A DNA stretch of 64,000 nt from Nitrosomonas sp. (GCA_016703745.1 JADJBK010000007.1:1413-65412); one strand, 5' to 3'. Positions 6,136-64,000 are shown, counted from the stretch's first letter. Numbers and translations are program-made. Notes: generated by a model from the letters alone, not told the origin.

Positions 6136-7226
6136 GGCGTTGTTGAATAAATCAAAATGAGCCAAATGGCTCCGTTCTGCCGTTAATTGTTAGAGTTTTA
6201 CGGACACCGGCATGCCTAGATTGGCCATTCTGTTGAGTGCAGACGCACTAATCCACGCTTCTGTTTTTTGCTGTGGGAGTGCACGCGCTTTCATGGCGTT
6301 GCCAAAAATACGCTTGTAGCGTTGCACGGCAAGCTCGGCATAGTTGCGCAAACCATATCCTGTCTTCTTTTGCCAAGCAATGCGGCCATGCTGTTCAATT
6401 ACCCTGATATGACCGTCCCGCTGACTGTCGCCTGTAGCGGAGCGGACGGCAGTCTTGTGCGGTGGAATGATCACTTGTGCATCAGGTTGATGATTCAAAA
6501 CCGCCTGGGAAATCGGTTCACCATCATAGGCGCCATCGGCGATGAAGGTATCAAAAGGCGTATCAATTTGGGCAAGCAAATCCGGGATTGCAGTGGGGTC
6601 GCCTATTTCAGGTGGGGTCAGTTCGCACGCCAGCAATTGATGGTTCTCATCGACCGCAAGATGCAATTTACGCCAAGTGCGCCGGGCCGCAACGTCATGC
6701 TTTTCCTGGTGCCAGTCGTCTTTGCCGTAAACCTTGAGACCGGTTGAATCAACAATAACAAGACTACCCGGTTCCATCGCTTTGGTTAGGGTATGCTGAG
6801 GTAACTTAATGCTGCGCCTGGACAGGCTACTGAAGTCAGGAATGGTGATGTCAACTTTCATGATACCGGCAAGCGAGTTCATGAAACCTTCGGTTTGACG
6901 TAAGGGCAGATGGAAGACCTGGCGGATAAATAGAGCTGTTTCTATGGCGAGATTAGAATATTCCTGCGGCCTGCCGCGAGCTCCCGTTCTGGTGGGGCGC
7001 CACTCAGCAATTGCCGCTTCCGTAAACCAAATCGTGATATCACCCCGTCGCCGCAATCCGTTGTTATACTCATGCCAGTTCATCACTTTATAACGAGATT
7101 TTTCGATCTTATGACGGCGACTTTCGTTGTGTTTATAAGGCATTGGCTTCTCTGCAGGTGAAATCCTGCAGAATTATGCCAGATGTGCCATCTTTTTACC
7201 GACAGTTCGATTTATTCAACAACGCC
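6136..7226 (-). mobile_element. IS5 family, IS903 group; transposase 6190-7143 (317 aa)
   Basis: Perfect 18-bp TIRs GGCGTTGTTGAATAAATC (IS903: GGCTTTGTTGAATAAATC); VDSTGLKVYG, WRKLHLAVD, ADGAYD motifs; no target duplication. Confidence 0.93.
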
Positions 7227-7327
7227 CCTCGCAACGGTGTGCCGAGTATTACGATAGCCAAATAATCATGAGGCTTTAAAAAGTTACCTGAGAGTCGGTT
7301 GGTTCTGTCGCATTAACGAAAGAAAGC

Positions 7328-8598
7328 TGAGGTATGCTGATTTTCATGGAGTCCGAAGTTTCATAAAATGAAGACATGAAATGGAGGATGGAGATGGAAT
7401 TACGCCGCGCACAATATAGCCAGGAATTTAGGGAGCAATCAGTTAAGTTTTTTAAAGAAAGTGGATTAACTTTGGTTGAGGCGGCAAAACGGCTATCTTT
7501 ACCGAAAGGAACATTAAAGAATTGGGTTTATGCTGACAAACGAGGAGAACTCGCATTGGTAGGTAAGCATCAGAAGCCGCTGACTGAAGTTGAATTAGAG
7601 CTATCCAGAGTTAAACGAGAATTAGCAGAAGTGAAGATGGAGCGTGACTTTATAAAAAAGTGTGCGACGTATTTCGCGAAGGGGTCGCGGTGAGATACGG
7701 TCTGATTGAATCGATGCGACAAAGATATCCGATTGCGCTCATGTGCCGGGCATTTGATGTTTCCGAGAGCGGCTTTCATGTCCAAAGGACTCGCCCAGTC
7801 TGTAAGCGTAAGCAGGAGAATGCAAGACTGGAAATAGAAATACTGGCCGCACACCAACGTACACGAGAGACCTACAGTGCCGAGCGCTTGCATCATGACT
7901 TGGCGGATCACGGAGTACAAACCACACCATACCGCGTTAGAACATTGCGCAAGAAATTGAACTTGCGTTGTAAGCAAAAACTGAAACTCAAGGCGACAAC
8001 CGATTCTAAACATCATTTACCGGTTGCGCCCAATATTCTGAACCGGGAATTTGCTGTTAACGCACCGGGTAAAGTGTGGGTCAGTGACATCACTTACATC
8101 CCTACAGACGAAGGTTGGTTGTATTTAGCTGGCGTAAAGGATCTGTTTAATGGAGAGCTGGTAGGCTATGCCATGAATGAGAGAATGACTAGGAGCCTGG
8201 TTATACAGGCATTATTTCGTGCAACTGCAAGTAAACATCCCGGTAAGGGACTGATTGCTCACTCAGATCGCGGCAGCCAATACTGTGCACATGATTACCA
8301 GAATTTATTGCAACAATTTGGCATGATCGCTTCCATGAGTCGCAAGGGTGATTGCTATGATAACGCGCCGATGGAAAGTTTCTGGGGAATACTTAAAACC
8401 GAGCTGGTGCATCATCGGAGATTCAAAACACGACAACAAGCCATTCAGGAGATTACCGAATATATAGAAATCTTCTATAACCGGCAGCGAAAACAGAAAA
8501 GGCTGGGCTACTTGTCACCAGCACAATTCACGCAGCAATACTATGCAAATCTGCTTGTTGCTTAAACCGATGGACTCCATTTTTGACAGCACATATCA
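7328..8598 (+). mobile_element. IS3-family element copy 1 (orfA 7376-7693, orfB to 8565)
   Basis: TGA..TCA ends with imperfect 27-bp TIRs; A6G -1 frameshift motif near 7654; WVSDITY, HSDRGSQY, ESFWGILKTE DDE motifs. Confidence 0.95.
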
Positions 8599-8845
8599 CT
8601 GTGCAGCGTGCCGAGTTTCGCTGGGTCAATACGCTTCCTGGCAATCTCAAGACTGCCTTCAGTGGAACATACCATGCATTCAATCACGCCAAGTATGCAC
8701 AGCGCTATCTTGCAGAATTCTCCTATCGCTTCAATCGCCGTTTTGATTTGGCTGCCATGGTGCCGCGATTGCTGCGCGCCGCCGCAACGACAGAACCTCT
8801 TCCGCTCGGTACATTGAGAATTTCTGAGACAAGTAACTAATCAGG
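8599..8845 (+). mobile_element. IS1595-family 3' remnant
   Basis: RWVNTLPGNLKT..YHAF..YLAEFSYRFNRR; ends CTAATCAGG like 23318-23955. Confidence 0.8.
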
Positions 8846-9636
8846 AAACCTTTTGCATCCGAATGCTATAATAAGCCAGTGGATGTGCTACGCAGTTGGT
8901 AGAGCACCTTCTCGCGCCTTACGAGCGCTGGGGTGAACCAATATTGGGGAACCCGTTGGTTTCTAGCGTTTTACACAAGACGGCGAAAGCTCGACGACTA
9001 TCTTGAGAGGTTCTACATTGATTTTTGGCGTGTCGAGTCTATCGACCCGAAACGCAGACACTGGACGGCTGCACGGAACTCCATTCGTGATGGCGCACGC
9101 GTAGTCGCGATCGCTCTGTGGCTGTCCATTCTTCTAGTAATCTTTTTACGTTTAGTCAAATAGAGAGACGCGACGAATGTTGTCAGTTCATTACCTCGCG
9201 AGTGGCTACCCATCATGCGGGCTTCGCCTGCTCGCTCCGCACCCTTCACCTGGCACGTGTCTGCTTTCAGAAAGTCTATCTGACTGCTGTGCGTCGAAAT
9301 CGGACAGTCGGCTTGTATTCAGAAGCTCGCTGCATTGCATTGCGTCTATTGTGGATGGTCTGGAGACAGACATTACATTTGCAATTATCGCGAGCCCACG
9401 ACCCTGGAATGCAAGCCGGCGCGGATAAATGCAAGCTCATTTGCAGATAATGTGAGCCCGCTGGTTATTTCAGTTGCAGTTAATCTGAGCCAGCAACGGC
9501 GTCAAATGCGAGCTTGGCCGGTTTCAAACGCGAGCCGTTACACCTAACAACTGAGTTCAGAGGCGAGCACTCTTGGGGGACAGGTCTATATTTTAAAATA
9601 TTAAATGTAGGACTGCCCCTTCTTACTCCTGAGTTA

Positions 9637-10512
9637 CTATTTTTCGTTCTTATAGAATGACCGTCTCACAAAAAAAACATGCCGTTCATCTCCCACGTCG
9701 ACTTCGATCTCAAATTCACCTTCGGTTTTATGAGTTAATCCCCTAGTATCGGTGACTATCAACCCCCCATGCCCTTCACCAGGTGCTATTGTTTGCGCTT
9801 TCATAACTAGTTGTTCCGCTAATTGTCTGCTGTTCTGGGCACTGGCTGCTATTGAGTCTAAGTTATTTCTAAAATTTTGACTATTCTGGTTCGCCAATAT
9901 TCGCGCTTTAGCTGGGTCATAAGTGGTTGTGGTAGAAATACCACTGTATGAACCAGAGTAGTTGCCAGATATACCAGCAGTATATGGTCTGTATCCGTAA
10001 CTTCCATAGCCACTATAGGATCCGTATGTTCTACCAGTATTATATGTAGTTGAAGTACTATAAGCCGCACTTGATGCACTTAGTGCGCCTGCAGCAGCAG
10101 CCCATGCCGCAGCTCTTTTACGTCTCCCTCCTTCTTCCTCTATTTCCATCATTATATCTGAGTAAGACAGTACGTTTATTGGTTGAGTATTAGAGGCAGG
10201 CTGACCAGCACTTTTTACCTTTAACGAAACACGAATATTGTCACTACTTATATTTATAAACTCTTTGCCTAAATTTTGTACATACAAAACATATGATGTA
10301 AATGAGGTTGCGTTATTCAGGTGGCTATAAGGGGCTAGCGTTACAAAGTGTGTTTTCTTAGATATGATCGTTTCCTTTCCATCATCATAAACAAACTCTT
10401 GTCCCTCAGTTTTGATAGGTGACATTTTCATATAATGCACTGAAGCACATCCTGTCATACTTAATATTAGGACAATTAACGCAGGAAAGTTAATTGACAT
10501 TTCCCTTTTCAT
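9637..10512 (-). CDS. Hypothetical lipoprotein (291 aa)
   Basis: Signal peptide with lipobox MTGC; Ala-rich helix and S/T/G/Y-rich segment; AGGAG upstream. Confidence 0.75.
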   Translation of the reverse strand: MKREMSINFPALIVLILSMTGCASVHYMKMSPIKTEGQEFVYDDGKETIISKKTHFVTLAPYSHLNNATSFTSYVLYVQNLGKEFINISSDNIRVSLKVKSAGQPASNTQPINVLSYSDIMMEIEEEGGRRKRAAAWAAAAGALSASSAAYSTSTTYNTGRTYGSYSGYGSYGYRPYTAGISGNYSGSYSGISTTTTYDPAKARILANQNSQNFRNNLDSIAASAQNSRQLAEQLVMKAQTIAPGEGHGGLIVTDTRGLTHKTEGEFEIEVDVGDERHVFFVRRSFYKNEK

Positions 10513-10547
10513 GTACCTTCTCCTTTACTCATGACGCCCCACTGCAA

Positions 10548-11126
10548 CTACTTGTTGTCCCCGACCGCTTGGTAGAACTTGGTATACGAATTTTGAGAAA
10601 TGCCTCTTAGGCGCTCTCTAAATTTGTCAGAAAAACTCGGCAGCCACTTGAAATAGATTTGATAAGCGGTCTCTTTCTTTAAATTAATTTGATCACTTGT
10701 TTTTTCTGTTAGCGCCAAATATTCTTTTATCTTGTCATGCGCATCGTCGTATTCCGTCTTAAATGGATCAAGACTTTTCTTTATTACGGCTATTTCTATT
10801 TCAAGTATGTTAGATACGTTTATTATTAGACACTTGAAATTCAGGGTCAAAATGTATCTTGTTATAATGGAGCGAACCTGCAGCCAATGAAACGATGTCC
10901 AGTTTTTTTCTATGTAGGATTTAACAATGCGAAATTTTCTTTTCTCATTGCCGTCGTAATGAGACTGACTGACATCAGGTAAATCTAGAGCCTTAGATGA
11001 CAACACGCTGGCGGCCGTTGAACATCCCGACCCAGTACGGCCAGTCAATCCGATAACGACAAAGTTACCCGCCTCTTTATAGATACGTTCCAAAGCGTGA
11101 GAAATAGCTGTTTTATTTTGTTCCAT
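10548..11126 (-). pseudogene. Truncated P-loop-kinase N-terminus of a probable anti-phage dCTP deaminase
   Basis: FVVIGLTGRTGSGCSTAA P-loop typical of kinase-deaminase fusions; ends after 192 aa with no HAE/PCxxC deaminase domain. Confidence 0.55.
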
Positions 11127-11501
11127 TCGTCCCCCAGTCTTATTGCCGAGTGACATGACCCTACGGCATGAGCATACTGGGCTGACGCAGGTTCGTTTGT
11201 CTTGCCGCCCAACACAATATATAAGACATTTTGTCCAAAAAATCGGAGTTGACACTATTAACTTTATTTAAATTCATTTATGTAAATAAATTAATAGTTA
11301 AGAAGACGATTTAATATACACTTTGTTAGTCAAATTTTTGCAGTTATATTATTTATTTGTCAATAAATACAAATGTTTGTTTCACATAGAAACCAAAATT
11401 TTGTGAGCAAGCAGTATAAATAGATAGGGCAATGCGATCATGTTTATTAAATGTCATTAACGACTATTTTCTCTCTTTCTTTAAACAGCACTTTCACCGG
11501 T

Positions 11502-12116
11502 CTACTGCCCGGTCACCAATTTTTTCCCATCTGGGCGCAGCTCACCTTTTGGTGAAAGATGTCTATACAGCGTTTGCCGCGTGATACCGAGTTCCTGGCA
11601 CAAATCACTCACCTTAGTTTCTGGCTGACCCATTGCCGCCATAGCCAATCGGAGTTTCGCAGTAGTCATCTTGAAAGGGCGACCGCCTTTTCTGCCACGT
11701 GCCCGGGCTGAAGCCAAGCCAGCTTTGGTACGTTCTGCAATCAGTTCCCGCTCGAATTCGGCCAAAGCTGCGAAAATACCGAAAACCAGTTTCCCGGCAG
11801 CGCTGGTTGTATCAATGGCCGCGCCATGCCCAGTGAGCACTTTGAGTCCAACTCCTTTCGAGGTAAGGTCATGCACGGTGTTGATCAAGTGCCGCAAGTT
11901 GCGCCCGAGGCGGTCCAGCTTCCACACCAGGAGCGTATCCCCTTTGCGTAGTGCTTTGAGGCACGCCGCGAGTCCTGGCCGGTCTTCGCGCTTACCGGAA
12001 GCTTGATCCTCATAGAGCTGGTAAGGATCAACACCCGCAGACAGCAGAGCATCTTTCTGTAAGTCCGTCGACTGTGATCCGTCCGCTTTTGAAACTCGCA
12101 TGTAGCCAATCAGCAC
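11502..12116 (-). CDS. Serine resolvase/invertase (204 aa)
   Basis: LIGYMRVS, LVWKLDRLGR, C-terminal HTH (ELGITRQTLYRH). Confidence 0.95.
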   Translation of the reverse strand: MLIGYMRVSKADGSQSTDLQKDALLSAGVDPYQLYEDQASGKREDRPGLAACLKALRKGDTLLVWKLDRLGRNLRHLINTVHDLTSKGVGLKVLTGHGAAIDTTSAAGKLVFGIFAALAEFERELIAERTKAGLASARARGRKGGRPFKMTTAKLRLAMAAMGQPETKVSDLCQELGITRQTLYRHLSPKGELRPDGKKLVTGQ

Positions 12117-12126
12117 CTATTCCTCC

Positions 12127-12154
12127 TGTCACATATACGTTCGATTATGTGACA
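12127..12154. promoter_or_regulatory. Resolvase-binding (res) subsite
   Basis: TGTCACATA-N10-TATGTGACA inverted repeat just upstream of the resolvase start. Confidence 0.6.
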
Positions 12155-12227
12155 GTGTGCACCGGAAAGTTTAGGCCGTCAAAATTTGTCACTTAACCCG
12201 TCATTTATTCTAAGGAATGCAAAAGGT

Positions 12228-12549
12228 TCATACGGCTTGTAGTTGGGCAATCCGGTTTCTACCGTTATTGGAAAATAGTTTCAGAAGAAAATATTCTCCA
12301 ATTTTGGTAAAAACCGGATCGACCAACGGCTCACTGTAGAATGATCTACAGATACACCATGCGCCTCCATCATTTCTTCCAGGTGCCGGCAACTTAACGG
12401 ATAGATAGGCTGCGTACCAGCGGATACAGACCAGAATTACCTCAATCTGGAATCGCATTCCTTTCATAACCAGCATGTAGCCTCACTATTTTTTCGATGT
12501 CAACAATCTACACGAAGGTATCGATGATCTCGCTTAATGCGGCAGAACT
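12228..12549 (-). mobile_element. IS6-family remnant (left end plus degenerate transposase 5' part)
   Basis: MKGMRFQIEVILVCIRWYAAY then frameshift; end GTTCTGCCGCATTAAGC. Confidence 0.75.
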
Positions 12550-12623
12550 CGAATTGATAAATATCATTGATACATACTAATTTATGATATATACTTTTGG
12601 TATCTATTTAATAGGAGATTAAT

Positions 12624-12866
12624 ATGCATGCTACTGCCAAGTTATTTACCACTGGCCGGAGCCAAGCACTACGGCTTCCGAAAGAATTCCGCTTTCCGGG
12701 AACGGAAGTATTTATTCGTCGCGATCCTGTAACTGGCGAAGTCATACTGTCGCCAAAACCGGCATCCTGGGCGGAGTTTTTCGAGCTTGCCGATCGCACA
12801 AAGATTCCTGCCGATTTCATGGCGAATCGTGAAGACCTGCCGAACCAAGAAAGAGATTTGTTTTGA
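12624..12866 (+). CDS. vapB: VapB/AbrB-type antitoxin
   Basis: [20 protein letters not shown]; overlaps PIN gene. Confidence 0.9.
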
Positions 12867-13276
12867 TGCGTTATATGCTGGATACAAATATGGCCAGTTA
12901 TATTATCAAAAGCCATCCCCCGGAGATTCGACACCGGCTGGCGGCGCTGCCGATGGGCAGTATTACCATATCCGCAGTCACACAAGGCGAGCTTTTATAT
13001 GGCTTAGCCCGCAAGGGACATCCGGCCACCCTTGCAAAACTTATCCGGGAATTTCTATTTCGTGTTGAGACATTGCCCTGGGAAGAGCAAGCTGCCACCG
13101 TTTATGGCGATTTACGCGCTTCTTGCATGTCGGTTGGCATTACACTTGGGGCACTCGACATGATGATCGCCGCGCATGCAATAGCCGCCAATACAATACT
13201 TGTCACCCATGATAAAGCATTCAGCCTAGTTCCCGATGGTATTTTGACTATCGAAGATTGGATGAATGAAGTTTAA
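12863..13276 (+). CDS. vapC: VapC PIN-domain toxin
   Basis: [28 protein letters not shown] motifs. Confidence 0.92.
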
Positions 13277-13324
13277 GTTATAAACGATGGCGAAAAAAAA
13301 CAAGCTGCTGACGGTACTATTCGA

Positions 13325-13413
13325 GGTTCTGTCGCATTAAGCATTTTTCATCCCAATCTCTCATTTATTTTATTGAATAAAAATTTCCAATAATTGCTTA
13401 ATGCGACAGAAGC
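13325..13413. mobile_element. 89-bp MITE with IS6-like TIRs
   Basis: GGTTCTGTCGCATTAAGC..GCTTAATGCGACAGAAGC; second 89-bp copy reconstructed at 36324-37609. Confidence 0.8.
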
Positions 13414-13455
13414 TTTTAAAACACTGCAATGCTTGTGGATCAATAACGGCTTTGC

Positions 13456-14019
13456 TCATAAAATACTTCTTCCCCCAGGCATATGCCGGTAGAGAGTAGA
13501 AGCTGCAATACCGAGACGCTCTGCAACTTGGGCTACTGTTATTTCTGGGTCTTTAAGCATCGCTTTAGCTGCTGCAATATCATTCTCATTCATAGACTTT
13601 GGTCTTCCTCCCAAGCGCCCACGCGCCCTGGCTGATTCAAGACCGGCTTTAGTGCGCTCACGAATAATCGAACGTTCAAATTCAGCAAGACCAGCAAAGA
13701 TGTGGAACACTAAACGACCGCTTGATGTAGTGGTATCAATAGATTCGGTCAAGGATTGAAAGCCCATGCCTTGTTTTTCTAATCCCTCGACCGTTTCGAT
13801 AAGCTGCTTGATGGAACGGGCAAGCCTATCGAGCTTCCACACCACCAGCGTATCTCCTGAGCGCATGTATTCTAATGCGGCTTTTAATTCATAGCGGTCG
13901 CGCTGCGCCCCTGATGCTTTTTCGATAAAAAGCTTAACGCATCCAACTTTATTTAGCGCATCAATCTGTAATTCTGGGTTTTGGTCTTGCGTTGAAACGC
14001 GAGCATAGCCAACAAGCAT
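13456..14019 (-). CDS. Serine resolvase (187 aa)
   Basis: LVGYARVSTQDQ, VVWKLDRLARS, C-terminal HTH. Confidence 0.95.
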   Translation of the reverse strand: MLVGYARVSTQDQNPELQIDALNKVGCVKLFIEKASGAQRDRYELKAALEYMRSGDTLVVWKLDRLARSIKQLIETVEGLEKQGMGFQSLTESIDTTTSSGRLVFHIFAGLAEFERSIIRERTKAGLESARARGRLGGRPKSMNENDIAAAKAMLKDPEITVAQVAERLGIAASTLYRHMPGGRSIL

Positions 14020-14134
14020 CTTAATTCCTCCTAAAACTCATTCCCATGTTAGCTTTTTAGATGCCATGTTTCAAGAGATAGTTTTAAGATATAAAAACGT
14101 CTATTTTTGGATATTTTTCAGTGAAGTATTGGCA

Positions 14135-14190
14135 TATCTCAAAAACCTTCGTTTTTGAGATAATATATTGTACGCTTTCAAGGCGTACAT
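14135..14190. promoter_or_regulatory. res subsite and probable TA operator
   Basis: TATCTCAAAAA-N6-TTTTTGAGATA and TGTACGC-N7-GCGTACA inverted repeats between divergent resolvase and TA genes. Confidence 0.55.
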
Positions 14191-14250
14191 ATTGCTTGCA
14201 GGATAATTTTAATGTACTATTTCAATGTGTACAACCATAAGGGCCTAACC

Positions 14251-15053
<803 letters not shown>

Positions 15054-15217
15054 TGGGATCGATCAAGCGTTCCGGCTTGCAGACATAATCTGGATCCGCA
15101 TGATTTGCAAACCGGGTCGTATAGTTCATCAACTAAAAATAGATAATGATAATTATTTGTATTAAAAAATAACGGAAGTGTAAACGGTCATTTAGCAGGA
15201 AGCTGCTTTTATAACTC

Positions 15218-15561
15218 CAGATGAACTGGGTGTTTCCCATTTAGGTAATGTGCCAGCAAATAGCGAAAGCCTAGAATCCATATTTTTCGGCACATTGATA
15301 AATATAACTAATTCTTTAGACGCTATAGAACTTAAAAGAATTATTGATTTTCCGCCACTTGATTTAAACAATCTTAATGATTTTATTGCGATAGTGGCTG
15401 ATGCTTTGAGTGATCCTGCCGCGACACCATATTCAGACGAATTCTTAGTAGACTTTACGGTACAAAATGCCGTGGATGAGATTGAAGAATATTGGGCTGG
15501 TGACTCTAGTCTTGTCGGTATTCTTGATAGTAGTCCTTTTTTAGGGTTAGTTATTTCTTAG
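15218..15561 (+). pseudogene. 3' fragment of a near-identical paralogue of 25146-25892
   Basis: PANSESLESIFFGT..SPFLGLVIS identical at protein level to the C-terminal 103 aa of that ORF. Confidence 0.85.
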
Positions 15562-15647
15562 CTTAACCGAGTTATAACTAAATCTGGTGTTTGAGCGGTT
15601 GAAAAATAGCGGTATACCTGAATGATAGTTGTCAGCAAACAATTAAA

Positions 15648-16270
15648 TCAGTCCTGAGTTATCAAACGTTTATGTTTGCCATGATCTGCTTTGACAATAT
15701 TGTTCAGGTATTTCACCTGTCGATGTACCGTATCCTTCGGGCATTTTCCTTCTTCCTTCAATTCAGCAATGGCGGGGCCGAAAGCCGGTGCGTTGTCTGT
15801 ATTGATCATCTTTGGATGTACCCATGGTTTTATGGGCTTGAGTGCTTTGCTGAGAAAACGCTTGGCCGCTTTAGAACTGCGAATAGAGGACAAATAAAAA
15901 TCAATTGTGTGACCAGACTTGTCGACAGCCCGGTATAAGTAAGCCCATTTCCCTTTTAACTTTTACATAAGTCTCATCTACTCGCCTGCTGCGAGCAATC
16001 CCCGCTTTATAGTGCCATCTCAAGCACTTCTCAATTTCTGACGCACATAATGTGCTTTACCCAGCGGTAAAGCGTTGTGTGATCAACTTCGAACCCTCGT
16101 TCCGACATCATCTCTTCCAGTTCACGGTAACTGATTCCATATTTTCAGTACCATCTAACGCAACCAAGAATCACGCCACGATGGTAATGCCGCCACTTGA
16201 AATCCGACATTGCGGTATATCCTTAAAATTTCAATATCGCACCAATTTAATTATTTTTTGCAACAGAGCC
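15648..16270 (-). mobile_element. IS6-family remnant with frameshifted transposase
   Basis: End GGCTCTGTTGCAAAAAA; MINTDNAPAFG..KYLNNIVKADHG motif. Confidence 0.8.
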
Positions 16271-53950: not shown

Positions 53951-53977
53951 CAAAACACTATTCACAATGGAGTCGCC

Positions 53978-54709
53978 ATGCATAGCAAATTAATGATGAT
54001 CGTCGTGTTAGCACTATTACTTGGCGGGTGTGCCAGCATGAATGAGAGCCAGAAAAACACCGCACAAGGCACTGGACTAGGTGCAGGCGCAGGTGCCGCC
54101 GTTGGCGCAATCATTGGTGCGCTTGCAGGTGATCCCGCCCTTGGTGCAGGGATTGGCGCCGGTGTAGGTGCAGCCGGTGGCTATATCTGGTCGTCACACA
54201 TGGAGAACCAGAAAAAACGTATGGAACAGGCGACTGCCGGTACCAATATCCAGGTCACGCAAACCGAAAACAATCAATTGAAGATGAACATCCCAGGGGA
54301 TTTTTCATTCGATAGCGGGAGTGCAACCATCAGACCGGATATGTACCCGATTTTAAATAGCCTGGCTGATGGATTGCGAAGTAATCCGCAGTCACAAGCC
54401 ATGATTATCGGGCATACCGATAATACCGGTAGCGATGAGATCAATAATCCGCTCTCGATTAATCGCGCAGGCAATACACGCGCCTATTTAGTCAGTCAGG
54501 GCATCGCATCGAATCGGATTGCCATTGATGGCCGCAGTTCTTACGAGCCGATAGCGCCCAATGACAGCCCCGTTAATCGTGCGAAAAACCGCCGGATAGA
54601 AGTTTTTATGTTCGAGCCGCAACAACAGCAGCAGCAAATACAACAACCATACCAACAACAACAGCAAATGCAGCAACAATACCAACAGCCAATCCAGCCG
54701 GTATATTAA
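53978..54709 (+). CDS. OmpA-domain lipoprotein with glycine zipper and Gln-rich tail
   Basis: Lipobox LGGC, GAGAGAAVGA zipper, GHTDNTG..NNPLSINRA..NRRIE. Confidence 0.9.
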   Translation: MHSKLMMIVVLALLLGGCASMNESQKNTAQGTGLGAGAGAAVGAIIGALAGDPALGAGIGAGVGAAGGYIWSSHMENQKKRMEQATAGTNIQVTQTENNQLKMNIPGDFSFDSGSATIRPDMYPILNSLADGLRSNPQSQAMIIGHTDNTGSDEINNPLSINRAGNTRAYLVSQGIASNRIAIDGRSSYEPIAPNDSPVNRAKNRRIEVFMFEPQQQQQQIQQPYQQQQQMQQQYQQPIQPVY

Positions 54710-54712
54710 CAA

Positions 54713-55144
54713 ATGATGGACTTGCCGCCAGACATGCAGGAACGGATTGTGTGCTCAGTGACTGCAGCGATCAAATATGAAATACCGGCCAATATTTTAC
54801 TGGCCATCGCTGAGAAAGAGGGTGGCAAGCCGGGTCAATGGGTAAGCAACCGTAATGGCACTCACGATGTGGGCACCATGCAATTCAATACGGCCTATCT
54901 ACCACATGGGATCACAGCGGACGATGTGGCGCAACCAGGTTGTTATCCGTTTGATTTAGCAGCCTGGCGGGTGCGACAACATCTTAAACATGACCAGGGC
55001 GATATCTGGACAAAGGCGGCTAACTATCATTCCCGGACGCCAGAATATAACGCCAGGTACCGCGATGATTTAATTGCCAAAGCCGCAAAATGGGCAGTCT
55101 GGCTCGAAAATTACCTGATTACAGCAAATCGTCAAGAAAAGTAA
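54713..55144 (+). CDS. trbN: TrbN lytic transglycosylase
   Basis: LAIAEKEGG, DVGTMQFNT, ANYHSRTP. Confidence 0.92.
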   Translation: MMDLPPDMQERIVCSVTAAIKYEIPANILLAIAEKEGGKPGQWVSNRNGTHDVGTMQFNTAYLPHGITADDVAQPGCYPFDLAAWRVRQHLKHDQGDIWTKAANYHSRTPEYNARYRDDLIAKAAKWAVWLENYLITANRQEK

Positions 55145-55180
55145 TGCGAGGTTTTATTCCGATTCGCTGTTTGTAATGGA

Positions 55181-55213
55181 CAGGGTTATCCACAAAATAC
55201 GGGGATAACCCTG
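55181..55213. promoter_or_regulatory. 11-bp hairpin carrying a perfect DnaA box
   Basis: CAGGGTTATCC..GGATAACCCTG; TTATCCACA at 55186-55194. Confidence 0.5.
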
Positions 55214-55329
55214 TGTGTAACCAGTGGGCAACCATCCTAAGTACGAGGGTACACGATGGACATTGCCGCTGCCTTATTCAGGGCAAAAACCCGATGGCAC
55301 ATTTGTGTTTTGTAAAAGGAGTGCGTGTA

Positions 55330-55536
55330 ATGAAAAAGTCAGAAAATGAAAGTCAGGAACCAGACCTGAAAACCATGGATGAAGTGATTGACGAGAAGCT
55401 CATCGACATGGAAACACCGGGCTTTGCGGCTGAATTCAATCCGCTGGAAGCGGACAGGATCGGTGCATTTGAAGAAGATGCGCTGAGCGAACAAGATGCC
55501 TGGGAAAGCGCCATTGATGTAATCGAGCACACCTAA
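55330..55536 (+). CDS. traD: IncP TraD-like small acidic protein (68 aa)
   Basis: [24 protein letters not shown] motif; directly upstream of traC as in IncP-1. Confidence 0.65.
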
Positions 55537-55558
55537 TCATAATAGCTAAGGTAATCCG

Positions 55559-57865
55559 ATGAAACCCAATCGTAACGATGCTACCAAGCCAAAAAAATCA
55601 TTTCACGAAACCGTCGCTGAGAACCTCATTAAACAGCTCAGGCAGGGCACTGCACCCTGGCAAAAGCCGTGGAAACCCGGTGATCCACTTTTAACATTAC
55701 CCCACAATCCAACAACTGGTAAACGCTACCGTGGAATTAATATCCTCCATCTGATGAGTCAGGGGCGTACTGATCCGCGCTGGATGACGTATAGACAGGC
55801 AGCAAGTCTGGGCGCGCAAGTGCGCAAGGGTGAGAAAAGCATCCTGATTCAATACTGGAAGTTCAATGATGAGCGCATTAAAAAAGATGAGCATGGTCAG
55901 CCCATTCTGAACAGCGAAGGCAAGCCTGTTAAAGAACAATTCAAGCTCGAACGTCCAAAAGCGTTTTACGCCACGGTGTTTAATGCTGAACAGATTGATA
56001 ATCTACCCAGACTTGAGATTACATCCCCTGACTGGGAACCGATAGAGCGTGCTGAGCAAATATTACAGGCATCCAAAGCCGTCATCCATCATGGGCAAAA
56101 TGACCGGGCATTTTACCGATCATCATCTGACGAGATTCACCTGCCGCACAAAGAGCAATTTCAAAGGCCGGATCAATATTACGCAACCGCATTGCATGAA
56201 CTGGGTCATTGGACTGGGCATGAGTCACGTCTTAATCGTGATCTGGGTAATCCTTTTGGTAGTGAAGCATACGCAAAAGAAGAATTACGCGCTGAAATTG
56301 CCAGCATGATTTTAGGTGGTGAACTGGGTATTGGTCATGATCCAGAACAACATGCTGCTTATGTGGGTTCATGGATTAAGGTGTTGGAAGACGATCCGAA
56401 AGAAATATTTCGTGCGGCTGCCGATGCTGAGAAAATTCAGGATTATGTGCTTTCATTCTCACAGCAACAAAAAGTTGTTGAACAGGAGGAAATCAGGATG
56501 GATCAGATCAAACAGGACGCACTGGCCGACAGTACCCGCCAATACCTGGCTGTCCCTTATGTTGAAAAAGATCAGGCCAAAGCTGCCGGTGCGAGCTGGG
56601 ACAATCATGCCAAGTCCTGGTACGTCGGAGACAATGCTGATATTCGCGCACTAGAACGCTGGTTGCCGGAGAATGTAGCCAACCAACCGGAACCTGCAAT
56701 AGATCCTCAGGCGGAATTTACCGAATTATTACGTTCTCATGGCTGCATTGTAGACGGCCATCATCCGGTGATGGATGGCAGCAAACAAAGAATTAAAGTC
56801 GAGCATGACGTTTCCGGCGAAAAATCGGGCTTTTATGTCGCGCATCTTGACGGTCATCCTGCCGGATACTTTATCAATAACCGCACCAAGTCCGAGACAC
56901 GCTGGAAAGCCAAGGGGTATTCTTTAAATGACGAGCAAAAAGCAGTACTTTCGGCACAAGCTGTCATTCAGCAGCAAAACAGAAAAATCGAGCAACACGA
57001 GCAGCAATTGAAGGTGGCTGGGGAAATCAAGGCATTGCTGGCAATCGCACCGCTAGCCAATGCCGAGCATCCCTATCTGTTGGACAAAAATGCCCGACCG
57101 GGTGATTTAAAGATCGTGCCACAGAATGCGGATGATTTACCAGACGACTCCATCATCAAAATCGGTCAGGATTGGCAAGCAGCCAAGATATTGCGTGAGG
57201 AAAATCCTGGCAGTATTGTTCTAACCGCTGGTGATTTATTGTTACCGGTGCAAGACATCGATGGCCAGATCTGGAGTGTGCAAACCATACAGCCTGGCGG
57301 AGGCAAGTTTTTTGTGACCGGCAGTAAAAAGGAAAGTAATTTCTACGTGGTTGATGGGCAGGGCAGAGGAGTGGGTGCCCTGGACGATGCACTGATGATC
57401 ATCATCGCCGAAGGCTATGCGACCGCCGACACTTTATCCCAAAGCCTGGATTGCCCGGTGGTTGCCGCATTTGATTCAGGTAATCTGCCCAAGGTCGCTC
57501 AAGTCTTGCATGAAAGATACCCGCAGAAGCCGACTGTGATCGCCGGTGATGATGATTTCATACAGGAATCGGTCAATGGTACCAATCCTGGCCGGGAAAA
57601 AGCCATCGAAGCCGCAAAGCTGGTGAACGGCGAGGCAGTTTTTCCGATTTTTGCACCGGGTGAGCAAGTGTCAATGAAGCTCAGTGATTTTAATGATCTG
57701 GCGAATAAAAGCACTTTAGGGGTTGAGGGTGTTAAGCGCCAGGTTGGTTCTGTTGCTGCGAGCGCATTGGAACAAGCCAGGGATCAAGGCAGAGCTAGAA
57801 AATTGACAAACGGTCTTGAACAAAACCAGCAGGAGAATCAGCAAAAACGAGCACTGGCCAGGTAA
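55559..57865 (+). CDS. traC: TraC-like multi-domain protein: ArdC-N, zincin metallopeptidase, Toprim primase (768 aa)
   Basis: APWQKPW..YRGIN, HELGHW..YAKEELRAE, YLAVPY..AGASWD, IAEGYATA, IAGDDD. Confidence 0.9.
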   Translation: MKPNRNDATKPKKSFHETVAENLIKQLRQGTAPWQKPWKPGDPLLTLPHNPTTGKRYRGINILHLMSQGRTDPRWMTYRQAASLGAQVRKGEKSILIQYWKFNDERIKKDEHGQPILNSEGKPVKEQFKLERPKAFYATVFNAEQIDNLPRLEITSPDWEPIERAEQILQASKAVIHHGQNDRAFYRSSSDEIHLPHKEQFQRPDQYYATALHELGHWTGHESRLNRDLGNPFGSEAYAKEELRAEIASMILGGELGIGHDPEQHAAYVGSWIKVLEDDPKEIFRAAADAEKIQDYVLSFSQQQKVVEQEEIRMDQIKQDALADSTRQYLAVPYVEKDQAKAAGASWDNHAKSWYVGDNADIRALERWLPENVANQPEPAIDPQAEFTELLRSHGCIVDGHHPVMDGSKQRIKVEHDVSGEKSGFYVAHLDGHPAGYFINNRTKSETRWKAKGYSLNDEQKAVLSAQAVIQQQNRKIEQHEQQLKVAGEIKALLAIAPLANAEHPYLLDKNARPGDLKIVPQNADDLPDDSIIKIGQDWQAAKILREENPGSIVLTAGDLLLPVQDIDGQIWSVQTIQPGGGKFFVTGSKKESNFYVVDGQGRGVGALDDALMIIIAEGYATADTLSQSLDCPVVAAFDSGNLPKVAQVLHERYPQKPTVIAGDDDFIQESVNGTNPGREKAIEAAKLVNGEAVFPIFAPGEQVSMKLSDFNDLANKSTLGVEGVKRQVGSVAASALEQARDQGRARKLTNGLEQNQQENQQKRALAR

Positions 57866-57932
57866 AAAATGATCAATCTCTTTGCCTTTCTCCAAACAAA
57901 GCAGCGTTCAATTAGGCGACAGGTTGAGCAGG

Positions 57933-58355
57933 ATGTGCGGCGGTATTGAATACCAAAATCAGAAGATTTATTTCCCGCAACCTGATGCGCGGCTGCCTGT
58001 GCGTTTACGAAATGGCAATGTCACCTGGGTAACGTGGGGCAGACGCAAGGACGAAGCCCTCGGTAAATTTCCAAATGGCGGTTGGGCACGCCTCAATTCC
58101 ATCAAGAGTGGCAAATGGAAGCCATGGCATCCAAGGCCAGTCTTAATTGTCGCTGATCAGTTCATGGAAAAAGATCAGGAGAAACAATCCCACTGGGTAC
58201 CTTTAGGCACAAGCATGATGATTCAAGGGCTATTGGCAGAAAGGAATGATGAGCTGCGGGTTTATGTGGTAACAGTCAGCACACCGCCAGAGTATGCCTG
58301 GATACATGATCGTTGGCCGAGGTTGGTTCGGCTAGATCAATGCAATGGACCCTGA
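57933..58355 (+). CDS. Miniature SRAP-like protein (copy 2)
   Basis: Same protein as 1435-1857. Confidence 0.7.
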   Translation: MCGGIEYQNQKIYFPQPDARLPVRLRNGNVTWVTWGRRKDEALGKFPNGGWARLNSIKSGKWKPWHPRPVLIVADQFMEKDQEKQSHWVPLGTSMMIQGLLAERNDELRVYVVTVSTPPEYAWIHDRWPRLVRLDQCNGP

Positions 58356-58518
58356 TGTGCATGGCGTGGTTTTGTTGGAATTTACAAAAACCAATATAGA
58401 ATTATCAAAAAATATTTGTGACAGCTCAGCATGAAGCAGGCTGAAGTGGATTACCCATGAAGGCGTGACGAAGTAATTCTAATGGGTTCTGTCGCAAATA
58501 TTCGTAAAGTGTAAAGCC

Positions 58519-58722
58519 ATGATCCGCTGCCATCTCGCCCGCATGATGGGCGAACACAAGATGCGTATTGCCGACGTTGCCAGAGAAACGGGCTTGAGTC
58601 GCGCCACGGTGACGTTGCTCTATAAAGAAACGGCGCAGAAAGTGGATCTGGAAACCATTGAGAAGCTGTGCCTGCTGTTTGAATGCCAAGTAGGCGATCT
58701 ACTTGAGCTGACCCAACAATAA
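58519..58722 (+). CDS. XRE-family regulator (copy 2)
   Basis: Same protein as 2021-2224. Confidence 0.85.
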
Positions 58723-58819
58723 ACAGGTTTGTCCGTTAAAAGATAAAGACCCTTTGATAAGGCATTTAACGACATCCAATAAACGACTAATACCAAAAAA
58801 AAACAACAGGAACTACAGA

Positions 58820-60391
58820 ATGACAAGCATCCAACAACGTGCCGCCCTACAACGCCAGATCTGGGCCATTGCCAACGATGTGCGCGGCTCAGTAGACGGC
58901 TGGGATTTTAAACAATATGTCCTGGGCACCCTGTTTTATCGCTTCATCAGCGAAAACTTTGCTCTCTATATTGAGGCCGGTGACGACAGTATTCATTACG
59001 CTGCGCTTAGCGATGAGGTGATCACGCCAGACATCAAAGACGATGCCATTAAAACCAAGGGTTACTTCATCTACCCAAGCCAGTTGTTTGCCACTGTGGC
59101 TAAAAACGCCAACAACAACGAAAGCCTGAACACCGATTTGGCCGCGATCTTTTCCGCTATCGAAGCCTCCGCTAATAGCTACCCCTCTGAGCCGGACATC
59201 AAAGGGTTGTTTGCCGATTTCGATACCACCAGTAACCGACTCGGTAATACCGTTAAAGACAAAAATCTGCGTTTAGCGGCCGTTTTGAAAGGCGTGGCAG
59301 GCTTGGATTTTGGCCATGATTTTTATGAAAAGCCTGATGCCGCGCAAATTGACTTGTTCGGCGATGCCTACGAATTCCTCATCTCCAACTATGCCGCCAA
59401 TGCCGGTAAATCCGGTGGTGAATTTTTTACCCCGCAGCACGTATCAAAGCTGATTGCCCAACTTGCCATGCACAAGCAAACCAGCGTTAACAAAATTTAT
59501 GATCCAGCGGCCGGTTCTGGCTCGCTGCTGCTGCAAGCCAAAAAACACTTTGATAATCACATTATTGAAGATGGCTTTTGGGGGCAGGAGATTAACCACA
59601 CCACCTACAACCTTGCCCGTATGAATATGTTTTTGCACAACATCAACTACGACAAGTTCAATATGCAGCTGGGCAACACCTTAACAGACCCGCACTTTCT
59701 GGATGATAAACCCTTTGATGCCATCGTCTCCAATCCGCCCTATTCGGTGAAGTGGATAGGTAGTGATGACCCAACCCTGATTAACGATGATCGCTTTGCG
59801 CCAGCAGGTGTGCTCGCACCTAAATCCAAAGCCGACTTTGCCTTTGTGCTGCATGCACTAAGTTACTTATCCAGCAAAGGCCGCGCGGCCATTGTTTGCT
59901 TTCCCGGTATTTTTTACCGTGGCGGTGCCGAGCAGAAAATTCGCAAATATCTGGTAGATAACAACTATGTGGAAACGGTTATTTCACTCGCACCCAACCT
60001 GTTTTTTGGAACCACCATTGCTGTGACCATTCTGGTGCTCTCCAAACACAAAGCCGACACCACCACCCAGTTTATTGATGCCAGTGGTTTATTTGAAAAA
60101 AACACCAATACCAACACGCTTACCCATGACCACATCGAACAGATCATGCAGGTGTTCGATAGCAAAGCAAATGTGGAACACTTCGCTCAATCCATACCGT
60201 TTGAGAAGGTGTCCGCTAACGACTACAACCTGTCGGTGAGCAGCTATGTAGAAGCCAAAGACACCCGCACAGTGACTAACATTGTTGAGCTAAATACTGA
60301 TCTAAAAATTACTGTCGCTAAGATCACCCAACTGCGTATTGATATTGATGCGATTGTTGCCGAGATTGAAGGCGATGAGGTTGAAGCATGA
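58820..60391 (+). CDS. hsdM: Type I RM methyltransferase, intact (523 aa)
   Basis: [22 protein letters not shown]. Confidence 0.96.
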
Positions 60392-61525
60392 GCAGCATGA
60401 GTTATATGGAAAAGCTGCTTGATGGCGTTGAGGTAGAGTGGAAGGCGTTAGGTGATGTTGTTGCGATTAATACCGGTCAAAAGCCATCTGAAATTCTTGA
60501 TAGTGCGACAGATTTTGATTATATCAATGCTGGTACATCTAGGTCAGGATATAGCGCAACTAGCAATTGCGAAGGTGACACGGTTACAACTCCATCCCGA
60601 GGGCAAGGAGGGATCGGTTATGTAGGATATCAAAAAGATCCGTTTTGGTTAGGTCCTTTGTGCTACAAGATGAAGTCACTTGATAATGCTTTTTTGATTA
60701 ATAAATATATCTTCTATTTTTTCAATCAAAAAGCGCATTGTTATTAGGTTTAAAAAAAGAAGGTGGAGTTCCTGCTGTCAATAAGTCTGATTTGGCTAGA
60801 TTAGAAATTCCAATCCCCTGCCCAGACAACCCCAAAAAATCCCTAGAAATCCAAACCGAAATCGTCCGTATTCTGGACACCTTCACCGAGCTGACCACCG
60901 AGCTGACCACCGAGCTGACCACCGAGCTGACCGCCCGCAAAAAACAATACAACTACTACCGCGAGCAGTTATTGAGCTTTGAAGAAGGGGAAGTGGAGTG
61001 GAAGACGTTGGGGTCGGTAGTAAATATAAAAAATGGTAAAGACTGGAAGAAGTTAGGGGCTGGAAATATTCCTGTATACGGTTCTGGCGGTGTCATGCTG
61101 TATGTTGACACTTTTGCTTATGACAAGCCAACGGTGTTGATTCCAAGAAAAGGATCAATCACAAATATCTTTTATGTTGAATCGCCATTTTGGAATGTCG
61201 ATACGATTTACTACACCGAGATTGATACCGACCAAATTATTCCTAAGTTCTTCTATTACTTTATGAAGACGCTAGATTTAATGCAGTTGGATACTGGCTC
61301 TGGCAGGCCTAGTCTTACACAAGCAATATTGAATGAAATTAAAGTCCCCTTACCAATGCTGGCTGAGCAAGCTCGTATTGTTTCTATTCTCGATAAATTC
61401 GATGCCCTAATCAACTCCATCAGCGATGGCTTACCCCGCGAAATTGAATTGCGCCAAAAGCAATACGAGTATTACCGCGATTTGTTGTTGAACTTCCCAA
61501 GCCGGGTGCCGAGGTAGCGGCCTAA
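60388..61525 (+). CDS. hsdS: Type I RM specificity subunit (copy 2, apparent deletions near 60720 and 61497)
   Basis: Indels complementary to copy 1; same four 12-bp repeats at 60885-60932; consensus 379 aa. Confidence 0.92.
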
Positions 61526-61587
61526 TGCATCATCTAAAACCCGTAGGGACAAACTGCTCCCAGCTACAGCCATAAGGAAGGAACCCT

Positions 61588-62619
61588 ATGACCAAGCAAT
61601 TAAGCCTGCAAGACCAAAGCACGGAGTTCCTGCTTTACACCGCACCCAGTGGGGCGGTGAAAGTCGAGGTGCTGCTCAGTGGCGAAACTCTGTGGCTGAC
61701 GCAAAAGCGTATGGCCGAGCTGTTTGGCGTGGGCGTACCGGCCATTTCCAAGCATTTAGAGAATATCTATTCAAGCGGTGAATTAGATCAAAAGGCAACT
61801 ATTTCCCTTTTGGAAACAGTTCAGCAAGAAGGGAGGCGCGAAGTTAAGCGTAAGCTCGAATACTACAACCTGGATGCTGTGATTTCTGTCGGTTACCGGG
61901 TCAATTCTACCCAAGCTACCCAATTCCGCATCTGGGCGACAGCACTCATCAAAGAGTACATTATCAAGGGCTTTGCCATGGATGATGAGCGCCTGAAAAA
62001 TGGCCGCTTTTTTGGCAAGGACTACTTCCGCGAGTTGCTGGAGCGGGTACGCTCCATCCGCGCCAGCGAGCGGCGCATTTACCAGCAGATTACCGATATT
62101 TTCGCCGAGTGCAGTATTGATTACGATCCAAAATCAAAAACCACCCGGCTGTTTTACGCTCATGTGCAGGACAAGTTTCATTTTGCTATCACCGGCCATA
62201 CCGCCGCCGAAATCATTGCGCTGAAGGCCGATGCCAGCAAACCCCTGATGGGCATGAGCACCTATAAAAATGCACCGGACGGGCGGGTATTAAAATCGGA
62301 CGCTTCAGTGGCCAAAAATTATTTAAGTGAAGATGAAATCAAAAAGCTGGAACGCAGCGTATCGGCTTTTTTTGACTACATCGAGGGCATCATAGAGCGG
62401 CGTAACACCTTCACCATGGAAGCGTTTACCGAGAGCGTGAACAAGTTCCTCGCCTTTAATGAATATCAAATTCTGGAAGGTTTCGGAAAAGTGTCGCGCC
62501 AGCTGGCAGAGCAAAAGGCCCATGCGGAATACGACAAATTCAACAAGCAACAACGCATCGAATCAGACTTTGATCGCGAAATAAAAAAGCTACTGAACAG
62601 CAAGGATAAAGACGCATGA
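61588..62619 (+). CDS. rhuM: RhuM-family protein, intact (343 aa)
   Basis: RhuM motifs; ATGA overlap with hsdR. Confidence 0.9.
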
Positions 62620-64000
62620 CGGATTATAAAACCATAGCCGAATCCAATAACTTTATCGTACTGGATAAATACAACAAAGACTGGAAAGTGGCCGAGAGCT
62701 ACCAGAGTGAAGACGCCTTAGAGCGCGAGCTGATTCAGGATTTGCAAAACCAGGGCTATGAGTACCTGTCTGGCCTGAATAACCCGCAGGCCATGCTGGC
62801 TAACGTGCGTGTGCAATTGCAGTCCCTCAATAACGTGGAGTTTGCCGAGGGTGAGTGGCGGCGTTTTGTGGAAACCTATCTGGATAAGCCCAGTGACACT
62901 ATCGTTGATAAAACCCGCAAGATCCATGATGACTATATTCACGACTTTGTGTTTGACGATGGCCGCATTAAAAATATTTATCTGCTGGATAAAAACAACA
63001 TCACCCGCAACAAGGTGCAGGTGATCAAGCAGTTTGAGCAAACTGGCAGCCATGCCAACCGTTATGATGTGACTATTCTGGTGAACGGCTTACCGCTGGT
63101 ACAAATCGAGCTGAAAAAGCGTGGTGTAGCCATTCGTGAAGCCTTTAACCAGGTGCATCGTTACAGCAAAGAGAGTTTCAACGGCGAGGATTCGCTGTAT
63201 AAGTACTTGCAGTTGTTTGTCATCTCTAACGGAACCGATAGCCGCTATTTTGCTAATACCACCCAGCGCAACAAAAACAGCTACGACTTCAGCATGAACT
63301 GGGCGAAGGCAGATAACAGCCTGATTAAGGATTTAAAAGACTTTACCGCTACCTTCTTCCAAAAAAACACCCTGCTCAATGTGTTGCTGCATTATTCGGT
63401 GTTTGATGTAAGTGATACATTACTGGTGATGCGCCCCTACCAGATCGCGGCCACCGAGCGTATTTTGTGGAAGGTGAAAAGTTCCCATGAGGCAAAAAAC
63501 TGGAGCAACCCGGAAAGTGGCGGTTTTATCTGGCATACCACAGGCTCTGGTAAAACCTTAACCAGCTTTAAGGCCGCGCGTTTGGCCACAGAACTAGAGT
63601 TTGTAGACAAGGTGTTTTTTGTGGTCGACAGAAAAGACCTCGACTACCAGACTATGAAAGAATACCAACGCTTTTCACCCGACAGTGTGAATGGCTCTGA
63701 CAGTACCGCAGGTTTAAAGCGCAATCTGGATAAAGACGATAACAAGATCATCGTCACCACCATCCAGAAGCTCAACAACCTGATGAAAAACGAAGGCGAT
63801 CTACCCATCTACAACAAGCAGGTGGTGTTTATTTTTGATGAATGCCACCGCAGCCAATTTGGTGAAGCTCAAAAAAACCTGAACAAGAAATTCAAACGCT
63901 TCTATCAGTTTGGCTTTACCGGCACGCCCATCTTCCCGCTAAATGCTTTAGGTGCAGAAACCACTGCCAGCGTATTTGGTCGGGAGTTGCATTCTTATGT
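62616..64000 (+). CDS. hsdR: Type I RM restriction subunit, runs off the window
   Basis: [19 protein letters not shown] start like EcoR124I Hsd[19 protein letters not shown] nuclease, [17 protein letters not shown]. Confidence 0.96.

Follow-up and report, generated by a model that had tools for sequence, protein, structure and literature searches.

A plasmid form with an IS903-group element fused to the start of hsdR: probable adjacent deletion and probable merging of two variants in one contig

The DNA described here, called the window in what follows, comprises 64,000 nucleotides (nt) from Nitrosomonas sp. (GCA_016703745.1 JADJBK010000007.1:1413-65412) and carries the start of the type I restriction gene hsdR twice—once cut off by an insertion sequence (IS) of the IS903 type and once running on as an open reading frame (ORF). 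We consider it probable that two forms of one plasmid co-circulate, a parent of ~82 kb (P) and a derivative of 56.5 kb (D), that D goes back to an IS903-type deletion adjacent to the IS, and that the duplication seen in the window is an overhang made by the assembler. Throughout, X denotes public sequencing runs (wastewater metagenomes) and L denotes public contigs. An earlier first-pass annotation, made from the window alone, had described 6136-62631 as a unit that lacks restriction but keeps modification, either joined in tandem to its parent or merged with it during assembly.

The junction between hsdR and the insertion sequence

Self-BLAST of the window aligns 1-6135 with 56498-62631 in 6138 columns that are 99.853% identical; 2 mismatches, both C/T, and 7 one-base gaps, all in homopolymers, account for the difference. 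The first copy of this backbone tail (1-6135, plus strand) contains the 3′ part of the ArdC gene, an ORF of 157 amino acids (aa), a helix-turn-helix (HTH) gene, hsdM, hsdS, rhuM, and the first 16 nt of hsdR (6120-6135, plus strand, ATG at 6120). Here, hsdR is severed: base 6136 is the terminal base of the IS, and 6135|6136 constitutes the D-type junction. In the second copy (56498-62631, plus strand), hsdR begins at 62616 and proceeds in the parent-type manner, its 5′ 1385 nt (62616-64000, plus strand) staying open for 461 codons up to the window end. The full gene, encoding 1038 aa, is present in the public contigs L001 and L003. The arrangement is hence as the first-pass annotation had read it—a recurring segment whose first copy stops at hsdR nt 16 exactly on an IS903-type terminal inverted repeat (TIR) and whose second copy enters intact hsdR—with the intactness of hsdR in the window holding as far as 64000. 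A wrap-around of a circular 56.5-kb record was also considered and rejected, as the copies differ and diverge after 6135.

The junction of hsdR nt 16 with the IS is real and biological. Logan contigs cross 6135|6136 in X2 (1182 nt, covering 5307-6489 at a depth of 90), X3 (1078 nt), and X1 (59 nt), and other Logan contigs likewise cross the right side, from the IS through the spacer into an IS3-family element. Window 1-7467 is matched in collinear order by the 26.5-kb ENA MEGAHIT contig L002, and junction-specific words occur in 8 runs from 3 studies (2015, 2020, and 2025), all of them on wastewater. A lack of reads supporting 6135/6136 had been named earlier as one refuting condition, against which these contigs and words speak. 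A chimeric misassembly, with a junction existing in no molecule, might be suspected from the error-containing long-read assembly behind the window and from the position of the junction at a repeat boundary. However, Logan contigs and separate short-read assemblies both span this junction at full depth, its words recur in those 8 runs of 3 studies, and the hsdR interior is missing where the junction dominates, so that we rejected this explanation and regard it as extremely improbable. The exact junction pattern gave 0 matches each in JGI metagenome, GTDB genome, and IMG/VR contigs, and no Nanopore runs holding the region are listed.

The same public runs separate the two plasmid forms. In X2, the unit (7001-62000) stands at ~52-126x outside multi-copy IS elements, while the hsdR interior (62723-64000) is covered at 0-5x, with hsdR at 0-5% of the rhuM depth, and each end of the IS has just one neighbour, hsdR nt 16 on the left and the spacer on the right; X3 shows the same pattern at low depth. 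Hence, D exists on its own. The depth of hsdR equals that of rhuM in X8, X25, X20, and X10, where no junction is found, and X1 contains both the D and the P form. Over ten years, D has persisted in wastewater communities sampled by three studies, and it is the dominant form in some of the samples.

The IS itself spans 1091 bp (6136-7226, minus strand) and is bounded by an 18-bp TIR, GGCGTTGTTGAATAAATC, whose arms lie at 6136-6153 and 7209-7226. Its transposase is encoded by a single ORF of 317 aa (6190-7143, minus strand), carries the domains PF13737 and PF01609, scores 272 bits against the IS5-family model NF033579 (cut-off 140), and is 38-39% identical to IS903B transposases over 96% of its length. 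Of the 18 TIR positions, 17 agree with those of an annotated IS903B copy; for comparison, the IS903B copy in NZ_CP064012.1 has the ends GGCTTTGTTGAATAAATC / GGTTTTGTTGAATAAATC and a length of 1057 bp. The structural features by which the IS903 group is recognized—an element of ~1.05-1.1 kb, 18-bp TIRs of the GGCTTTGTTGAATAAATC type, and an IS5-family DDE transposase in one ORF—are present, and the IS classifies on these grounds as a new, divergent member of the group. PLSDB held nothing usable for it at the DNA level.

The 9-mers flanking the IS in the window, ATTATAAAA on the left and CCTCGCAAC on the right, differ and thus show no 9-bp duplication. On its right side, the IS is followed by a 101-bp spacer (7227-7327), which is the constant right flank in D and in the parent-type contig described below, and then by the IS3-family element, not by hsdR. 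A 9-bp target duplication can be found at another copy of this IS, the left flank ending in AGGTTCCGG (L027) and the right flank starting with AGGTTCCGG (L118, X1, X8, X25), with left and right flanks taken from different samples; this copy lies between enolase/ftsB-type genes and a stretch with a two-component system and fap genes. Since the IS makes 9-bp duplications elsewhere, the missing duplication at hsdR is meaningful. The element is multi-copy in wastewater communities, with a chromosomal copy and several other contexts. A simple insertion into hsdR—already doubted in the first-pass annotation—was rejected in view of the right flank that is not hsdR, the missing duplication, and the loss of the hsdR interior from D-only samples, where the junction dominates.

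Type I restriction-modification genes

By gene content, the unit 6136-62631 classifies as a restriction-minus, modification-plus derivative, as had been proposed. In the second copy, hsdM lies at 58820-60391, hsdS at 60388-~61525, and rhuM at 61588-62619, all on the plus strand, with hsdS broken by two assembly errors. The junction-bearing contig L002 encodes intact HsdM (523 aa), HsdS (375 aa), and RhuM (343 aa). The complete type I system—hsdM, hsdS, and hsdR—is seen in L001, in which HsdM shows PF12161 and PF02384, HsdR shows PF04313, ResIII, and PF12008 (EcoR124_C), RhuM (PF13310) is encoded between S and R, and no Pfam hit is recorded for the ORF at the HsdS position. PLSDB contains neither the plasmid nor a close relative of it; the matches that turned up there were to hsd genes, at 75-82%. 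A search for related loci with HsdR returned only relatives of ≤96% identity in many phyla, the parent contig not being among them.

The hsdS gene is itself variable. Both window copies hold four tandem CACCGAGCTGAC units (60884-60931 and 4385-4432), encoding (TELT)4, versus three units in L001 and L002. EcoR124-type systems acquire a different recognition-site spacer when the number of repeats in the center of HsdS changes. Plasmid variants may thus differ in specificity through the hsdS repeat number.

A further repeat brackets the hsd cassette. Contigs with intact hsdR carry, 48 bp past this gene (L001 14194-14548), a direct copy of 355 bp (98.3%) of window 57986-58340, which lies just upstream of the cassette; the cassette being bracketed by direct repeats, its loss by recombination is possible. 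In D, the second copy of this repeat is deleted.

The parent-type arrangement

A public candidate for P was found through a look-up of a unit protein. Contig CAWKWC010000010.1 (GCA_963853275.1), 82,351 bp in length, is 100.000% identical to window 6135-20512, gapless over 14,378 bp, and has the same IS and the same right-hand spacer as the window. To the left of the IS, it encodes a 53-aa ORF, TauE, MerR, CzcD, a 1473-aa RND/OEP protein, CzcB, and a second cation-diffusion gene. This left junction, ...CCCACCCAGCTA|IS, also occurs in X8, X25, L026, and L030, and the full arrangement of czc side, IS, and spacer recurs in L026 and L030. The window cannot be a part of this 82,351-bp contig, a possibility that we rejected on the differing sequence left of the IS.

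From the start of the IS to its end, CAWKWC010000010.1 measures 56,484 bp versus 56,496 bp for the window unit, and by this arithmetic should reach its end inside the first ~16 nt of hsdR, an end-point made uncertain by a 12-bp hsdS repeat polymorphism and by single-base errors. The contig would then represent a circular parent that was linearized at or near the branch point of D and P, so that ~25.9 kb—hsdR and ~22.8 kb beyond it—would be followed by the IS and the unit. Short-read data fit the individual pieces: the metagenome-assembled genome GCA_049290155.1 has intact hsdR (L003), the czc-IS-spacer arrangement (L026), and the accessory region (L013) on separate contigs, and the ENA contig L001 (52.8 kb) runs from the unit through intact hsdR and 24.6 kb further. 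The 6.9 kb past hsdR in L001 contain the 355-bp direct copy of 57986-58340, a HEPN/nucleotidyltransferase pair, and IS debris.

The surroundings of the IS vary between public contigs. Some of these (L015, L018) carry an intact IS1595 where the window has the IS3-family element and a truncated IS1595, and the IS3 element probably also made an adjacent deletion here (7227-7327 and 8599). The region has been rearranged repeatedly, and the parent population is heterogeneous.

A third left flank of the IS (...CATTAGAAG; L031, L117, L028, L029) belongs to a Dcm methylase-Vsr region; in two short-read contigs (L031, L117), the IS links it to the same spacer. X25 shows this flank at a depth like that of the plasmid, and X2 lacks it. 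It may reflect a further nested deletion, a joint between plasmid and chromosome, or a chimeric route across the repeat. The Dcm-Vsr|IS|spacer order of L031 and L117 was not used as a case of nested deletion, these being short-read contigs over a 1.1-kb repeat and perhaps chimeric.

Formation of the derivative

We picture P as a plasmid of ~82 kb on which hsdM-hsdS-rhuM-hsdR would be followed by ~22.8 kb of accessory DNA—its last ~10 kb being the czc-type metal-efflux region—and then by the IS, the 101-bp spacer, the IS3 element, and the rest. P would thereby equal D plus ~25.9 kb. D would be window 6136-62631 closed on itself, a circle of 56.5 kb in which the left end of the resident IS is fused to hsdR nt 16, and in which hsdR from nt 17 onward and the accessory block, ~25.9 kb in all, have been deleted without a target duplication being left. 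For this, the left IS end might have attacked hsdR nt 8-16 (target 9-mer ATTATAAAA) in an intramolecular, one-ended transposition; the ~25.9 kb would leave as a non-replicating circle, and each product would retain one copy of the 9-mer.

We lean, with modest confidence, toward such a one-ended IS-mediated adjacent deletion as the origin of D. The signature of this process is recognizable because the IS and its right flank are shared by P and D, which part only on the left, where P has the czc block and D has hsdR nt 16, and because the IS has retained an intact end at the fusion; the hsdR interior is correspondingly absent in X2. At ~25.9 kb, the deletion extends beyond hsdR alone. Adjacent deletions and cointegrates have been reported as common for IS903 (PMC11708052), and the deletion activity of the present IS is deduced from its product. 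On gene content, D appears to lose restriction and metal efflux and to retain methylation, the RepA-like gene, the partition and control genes, and trb.

The product would look identical if D had formed in two steps, a second copy of the IS being inserted after hsdR nt 16 under duplication of ATTATAAAA and the two direct IS copies then undergoing homologous recombination. In these communities, the IS is active and occurs in several copies, and recombination between IS copies is a recognized cause of absent duplications (PMC11708052). The intermediate of this route, hsdR::IS, should reveal itself by an IS right end joined to ATTATAAAACCATAGCC (ATTATAAAACC), that is, to hsdR nt 8 onward. Such a joint is seen neither in the contigs and loose ends of X1, X2, X3, and X8 nor among the 4 right-flank contexts from JGI; this is weak evidence, since the intermediate could be rare or lost. 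We hold the two-step route to be rather unlikely.

Origin of the repeat in the assembly

The residual errors of the window indicate how much sequence was duplicated in the assembly from which it stems. Private differences were called against short-read references, and for 6136-20512 against CAWKWC010000010.1. Copy 1 contains five private single-base errors (522, 2923, 4671, 5769, and 5813) and copy 2 contains four (58795, 60716, 61485, and 61495), whereas none were found in 6136-7467, 51577-56497, and 62632-64000 against the short-read references, and none in 6136-20512 against CAWKWC010000010.1. Thus, 9/9 private errors fall into 12.3 kb of duplicated sequence, and the 20.7 kb of unique sequence that were checked contain 0 (P = 1.4e-4). 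Duplication of the whole unit would predict 10.5 errors in 6136-20512 (0 seen, P = 2.6e-5) and 3.6 in 51577-56497 (0 seen, P = 0.027). Over 7001-56497, short-read contigs show no window-specific indels except at 44612, which lies in a stretch that also carries single-nucleotide polymorphisms (SNPs). Since the two copies do not share them, the errors are stochastic and not systematic.

The simplest reading seems to be that polishing reads could not be placed uniquely on the 6.1 kb. In that case, only ~6 kb would be duplicated in the source assembly, and window base 1 would lie near a contig end. D-type reads that run back into the unit tail might have lengthened a P-type contig at its IS end, and the resulting terminal overhang would be expected from a long-read assembly of a sample that holds both P and D. 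The 6.1-kb duplication is, hence, most likely not a physical tandem. Of the two options left by the first-pass annotation—a tandem with the parent or a merging by the assembler—the distribution of errors favors the merging and speaks against the tandem.

A tandem on one molecule would mean that D is joined head-to-tail with P, either as a heterodimer made by RecA or as a cointegrate from replicative transposition, in which the IS of one P went into the hsdR of another. The order found in the window, of which 1.1 units are visible (unit tail, IS, full unit, intact hsdR), fits either molecule exactly, IS903-type elements form cointegrates (PMC11708052), and both forms co-occur in X1. Nevertheless, a tandem would place two full units in the assembly, yet private errors occur only in the final 6.1 kb of the unit; some samples contain D alone and others P alone, so that a mixture suffices; and two resolvases together with the partition functions would resolve multimers. 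We therefore judge a tandem to be improbable. Slightly less probable still is the more specific case in which the contig faithfully represents a D::P (or PxP) cointegrate, normally a transient product of replicative IS903-type transposition into hsdR. If it were true, D would have arisen by resolution, and the cointegrate route to an adjacent deletion would be documented in nature.

Several points weigh against the explanation that we favor, namely co-circulating P and D, an adjacent deletion, and an assembler overhang. As for the deletion, a one-step event and an insertion followed by IS-IS recombination look alike by sequence. As for the parent, the IS of P is likewise without a duplication (ACCCAGCTA / CCTCGCAAC), and the site had therefore already been rearranged earlier; the P-only runs X8 and X25 are without the 101-bp spacer, so that several parent variants exist; the direct parent is represented only by CAWKWC010000010.1, L026, and L030; and the placement of hsdR inside CAWKWC010000010.1 is derived from length arithmetic and from other samples. 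As for the overhang, the argument from errors presumes that these stem from reads mapping to both copies during polishing. In addition, window bases 1-3 are an in-frame ATG, codon 314 of ardC, which could hint at a rotated circular contig and would thereby suit the tandem; this ATG may be due to chance or to rotation of the contig to a predicted gene start.

Relation to known systems and meaning

Both an IS-mediated adjacent deletion that yields a restriction-minus, modification-plus variant and an assembly artefact of the present type are well-known kinds of event. With IS903, the element shares an IS5-family DDE transposase, a TIR match at 17/18 positions, a length of ~1.1 kb, a single ORF, and a 9-bp duplication on simple insertion; with the adjacent deletions of IS903, the case shares a deletion starting from an intact IS end, an unchanged other flank, and no duplication left behind. 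It differs in that the transposase is only 38-39% identical to that of IS903B and that the host plasmid is environmental, probably of the Nitrosomonas type. Deletion variants of resistance plasmids formed by IS26 or IS1 are similar insofar as a resident IS trims adjacent accessory DNA and nested variants co-exist; there, however, the IS belongs to another family, and the cargo lost here is a restriction subunit and metal efflux, not antibiotic resistance.

Like the hsdR-null, restriction-minus and modification-plus derivatives of type I systems, D keeps hsdM and hsdS and loses hsdR. To our knowledge, loss of hsdR is the only viable order of loss, as methylation goes on protecting the host. In contrast to such derivatives, the null allele here is a 16-nt stump from an IS-linked plasmid deletion of 25.9 kb, which has persisted for years in the environment.

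The contig resembles untrimmed terminal overlaps or concatemer contigs of circular plasmids, in that its start recurs one unit further on and the copies differ by stochastic homopolymer errors. Unlike in these, the overlap stops before the contig end, the copies being from two structural variants, D and P. For the scanning of genomes, this implies that a repeat stopping at an IS end in a long-read contig can represent two structural variants merged by the assembler, and that the distribution of residual consensus errors can reveal how much sequence is truly duplicated in an assembly. If the deletion happened as we propose, it would be a clean natural case of an IS trimming a plasmid: a restriction subunit and an accessory block of ~23 kb, including a metal-efflux cluster, would have gone in one event that spared the methylation, replication, partition, and trb genes. 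The knowledge of IS903-type elements and type I systems is left unchanged by these findings.

Backbone and accessory genes of the unit

Beyond the hsd region, the unit carries a backbone reminiscent of IncP-1 plasmids. The first-pass annotation had stated that the unit keeps rep, par, korB, and trb. ParA, KorB/KfrB, and trbB-trbM are indeed present, while rep is represented by a putative RepA-like replication initiator of 273 aa (40437-41258, minus strand), homologues of which stand at position 1 of several plasmid records, one being named RepA by NCBI. This candidate has no Pfam match and no hit in a PDB sequence search; beside it lies an AT-rich non-coding stretch (39950-40436). There follow kfrB (41581-41931, minus strand), korB/parB (42057-42944, minus strand), an HTH regulator (43162-43545, plus strand), and the IncP-1-like mating-pair-formation operon trbB-trbM (43618-53950, plus strand), which is directly followed by a traD-like gene (55213-55536, plus strand) and an ardC-like gene of 768 aa (55559-57865, plus strand).

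Both the Trb operon and a KorB/KfrB central control region, by which IncP-1 backbones are recognized, are thus found. The closest relative in PLSDB is a Nitrosomonas sp. plasmid whose TrbE is 74% identical to that of the unit. With the IncP-1-type plasmid NZ_CP133084.1 of Nitrosomonas sp. sh817, the unit shares the order kfrB-korB-HTH-trbB...trbL and Trb proteins of 64-76% identity. It differs by lacking a trfA-type rep, in whose place the unrelated 273-aa RepA-like gene is found, and by lacking the traF/G/I/J/K/L/M block, whereas sh817 has a relaxase, a coupling protein, and traJ/K/L/M; in tblastn, the traF-traM and rep regions of NZ_CP133084.1 matched no window ORF, which leaves the Tra1/TrfA part of the IncP-1 definition without a counterpart. 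Pfam scans of the larger window ORFs detected no relaxase or type IV coupling protein domains. Keeping trb does not, therefore, mean that the unit is conjugative, and the backbone has the appearance of a remnant defective in transfer. A Nitrosomonas-like host is probable, judging from the plasmid relative, the names of linked-gene homologues, and the sample types.

Segments of the backbone appear to have been exchanged between variants in the region of 40476-44342. X8, which holds the hsdR-intact form, has a diverged rep-kfrB-korB-HTH stretch, in which 40476-41604 shows 27 mismatches and 13 gaps and 41675-44342 has zero depth, and X1-X3 have common SNPs relative to the window across 43767-47857.

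The remainder of the unit is occupied by the IS3-family element next to the spacer (orfA/orfB, 7328-8598, plus strand; second copy at 26200-27470) and by an IS-rich accessory load (8599-39837), whose depth equals that of the backbone in 4 runs. This load encodes resolvases, VapBC, a TacAT-like system, Nramp, a sensor kinase/regulator pair, HicB, TetR/OsmC, GGDEF-EAL, and HigBA, together with ParA (29116-29817) and the mobile elements IS5 (two), IS1595 (two), and a further IS5-family element at 36325-37608.

The latter has the terminal repeats GG[ACT]TCTGTCGCATTAAG and is extremely abundant in the metagenomes, reaching a depth of ~1500-1900 in X2 versus ~85 for the plasmid. Solo ends of it lie at 7300-7318 (inside the 101-bp spacer), 12548, 13326-13412, 25125, 28599, and 1988 / 58486; these ends and a miniature pair of ~87 bp are scattered at module boundaries. 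A miniature element of 304 bp (34631-34934), bounded by 41-nt inverted repeats of the Tn3/Tn21 type (GGGGTCGTCTCAGAAAACGGAAAATAAAGCACG...), is likewise far above the plasmid in depth, at ~988 in X2 and ~254 in X3. Two inverted copies (98%) of an IS5-family element, at 20307-21594 and 31470-32757, bracket 9.9 kb with parA, and another inverted pair of 351 bp is located at 15214-15564 and 25143-25493. Inversion isomers of the accessory region are hence likely.

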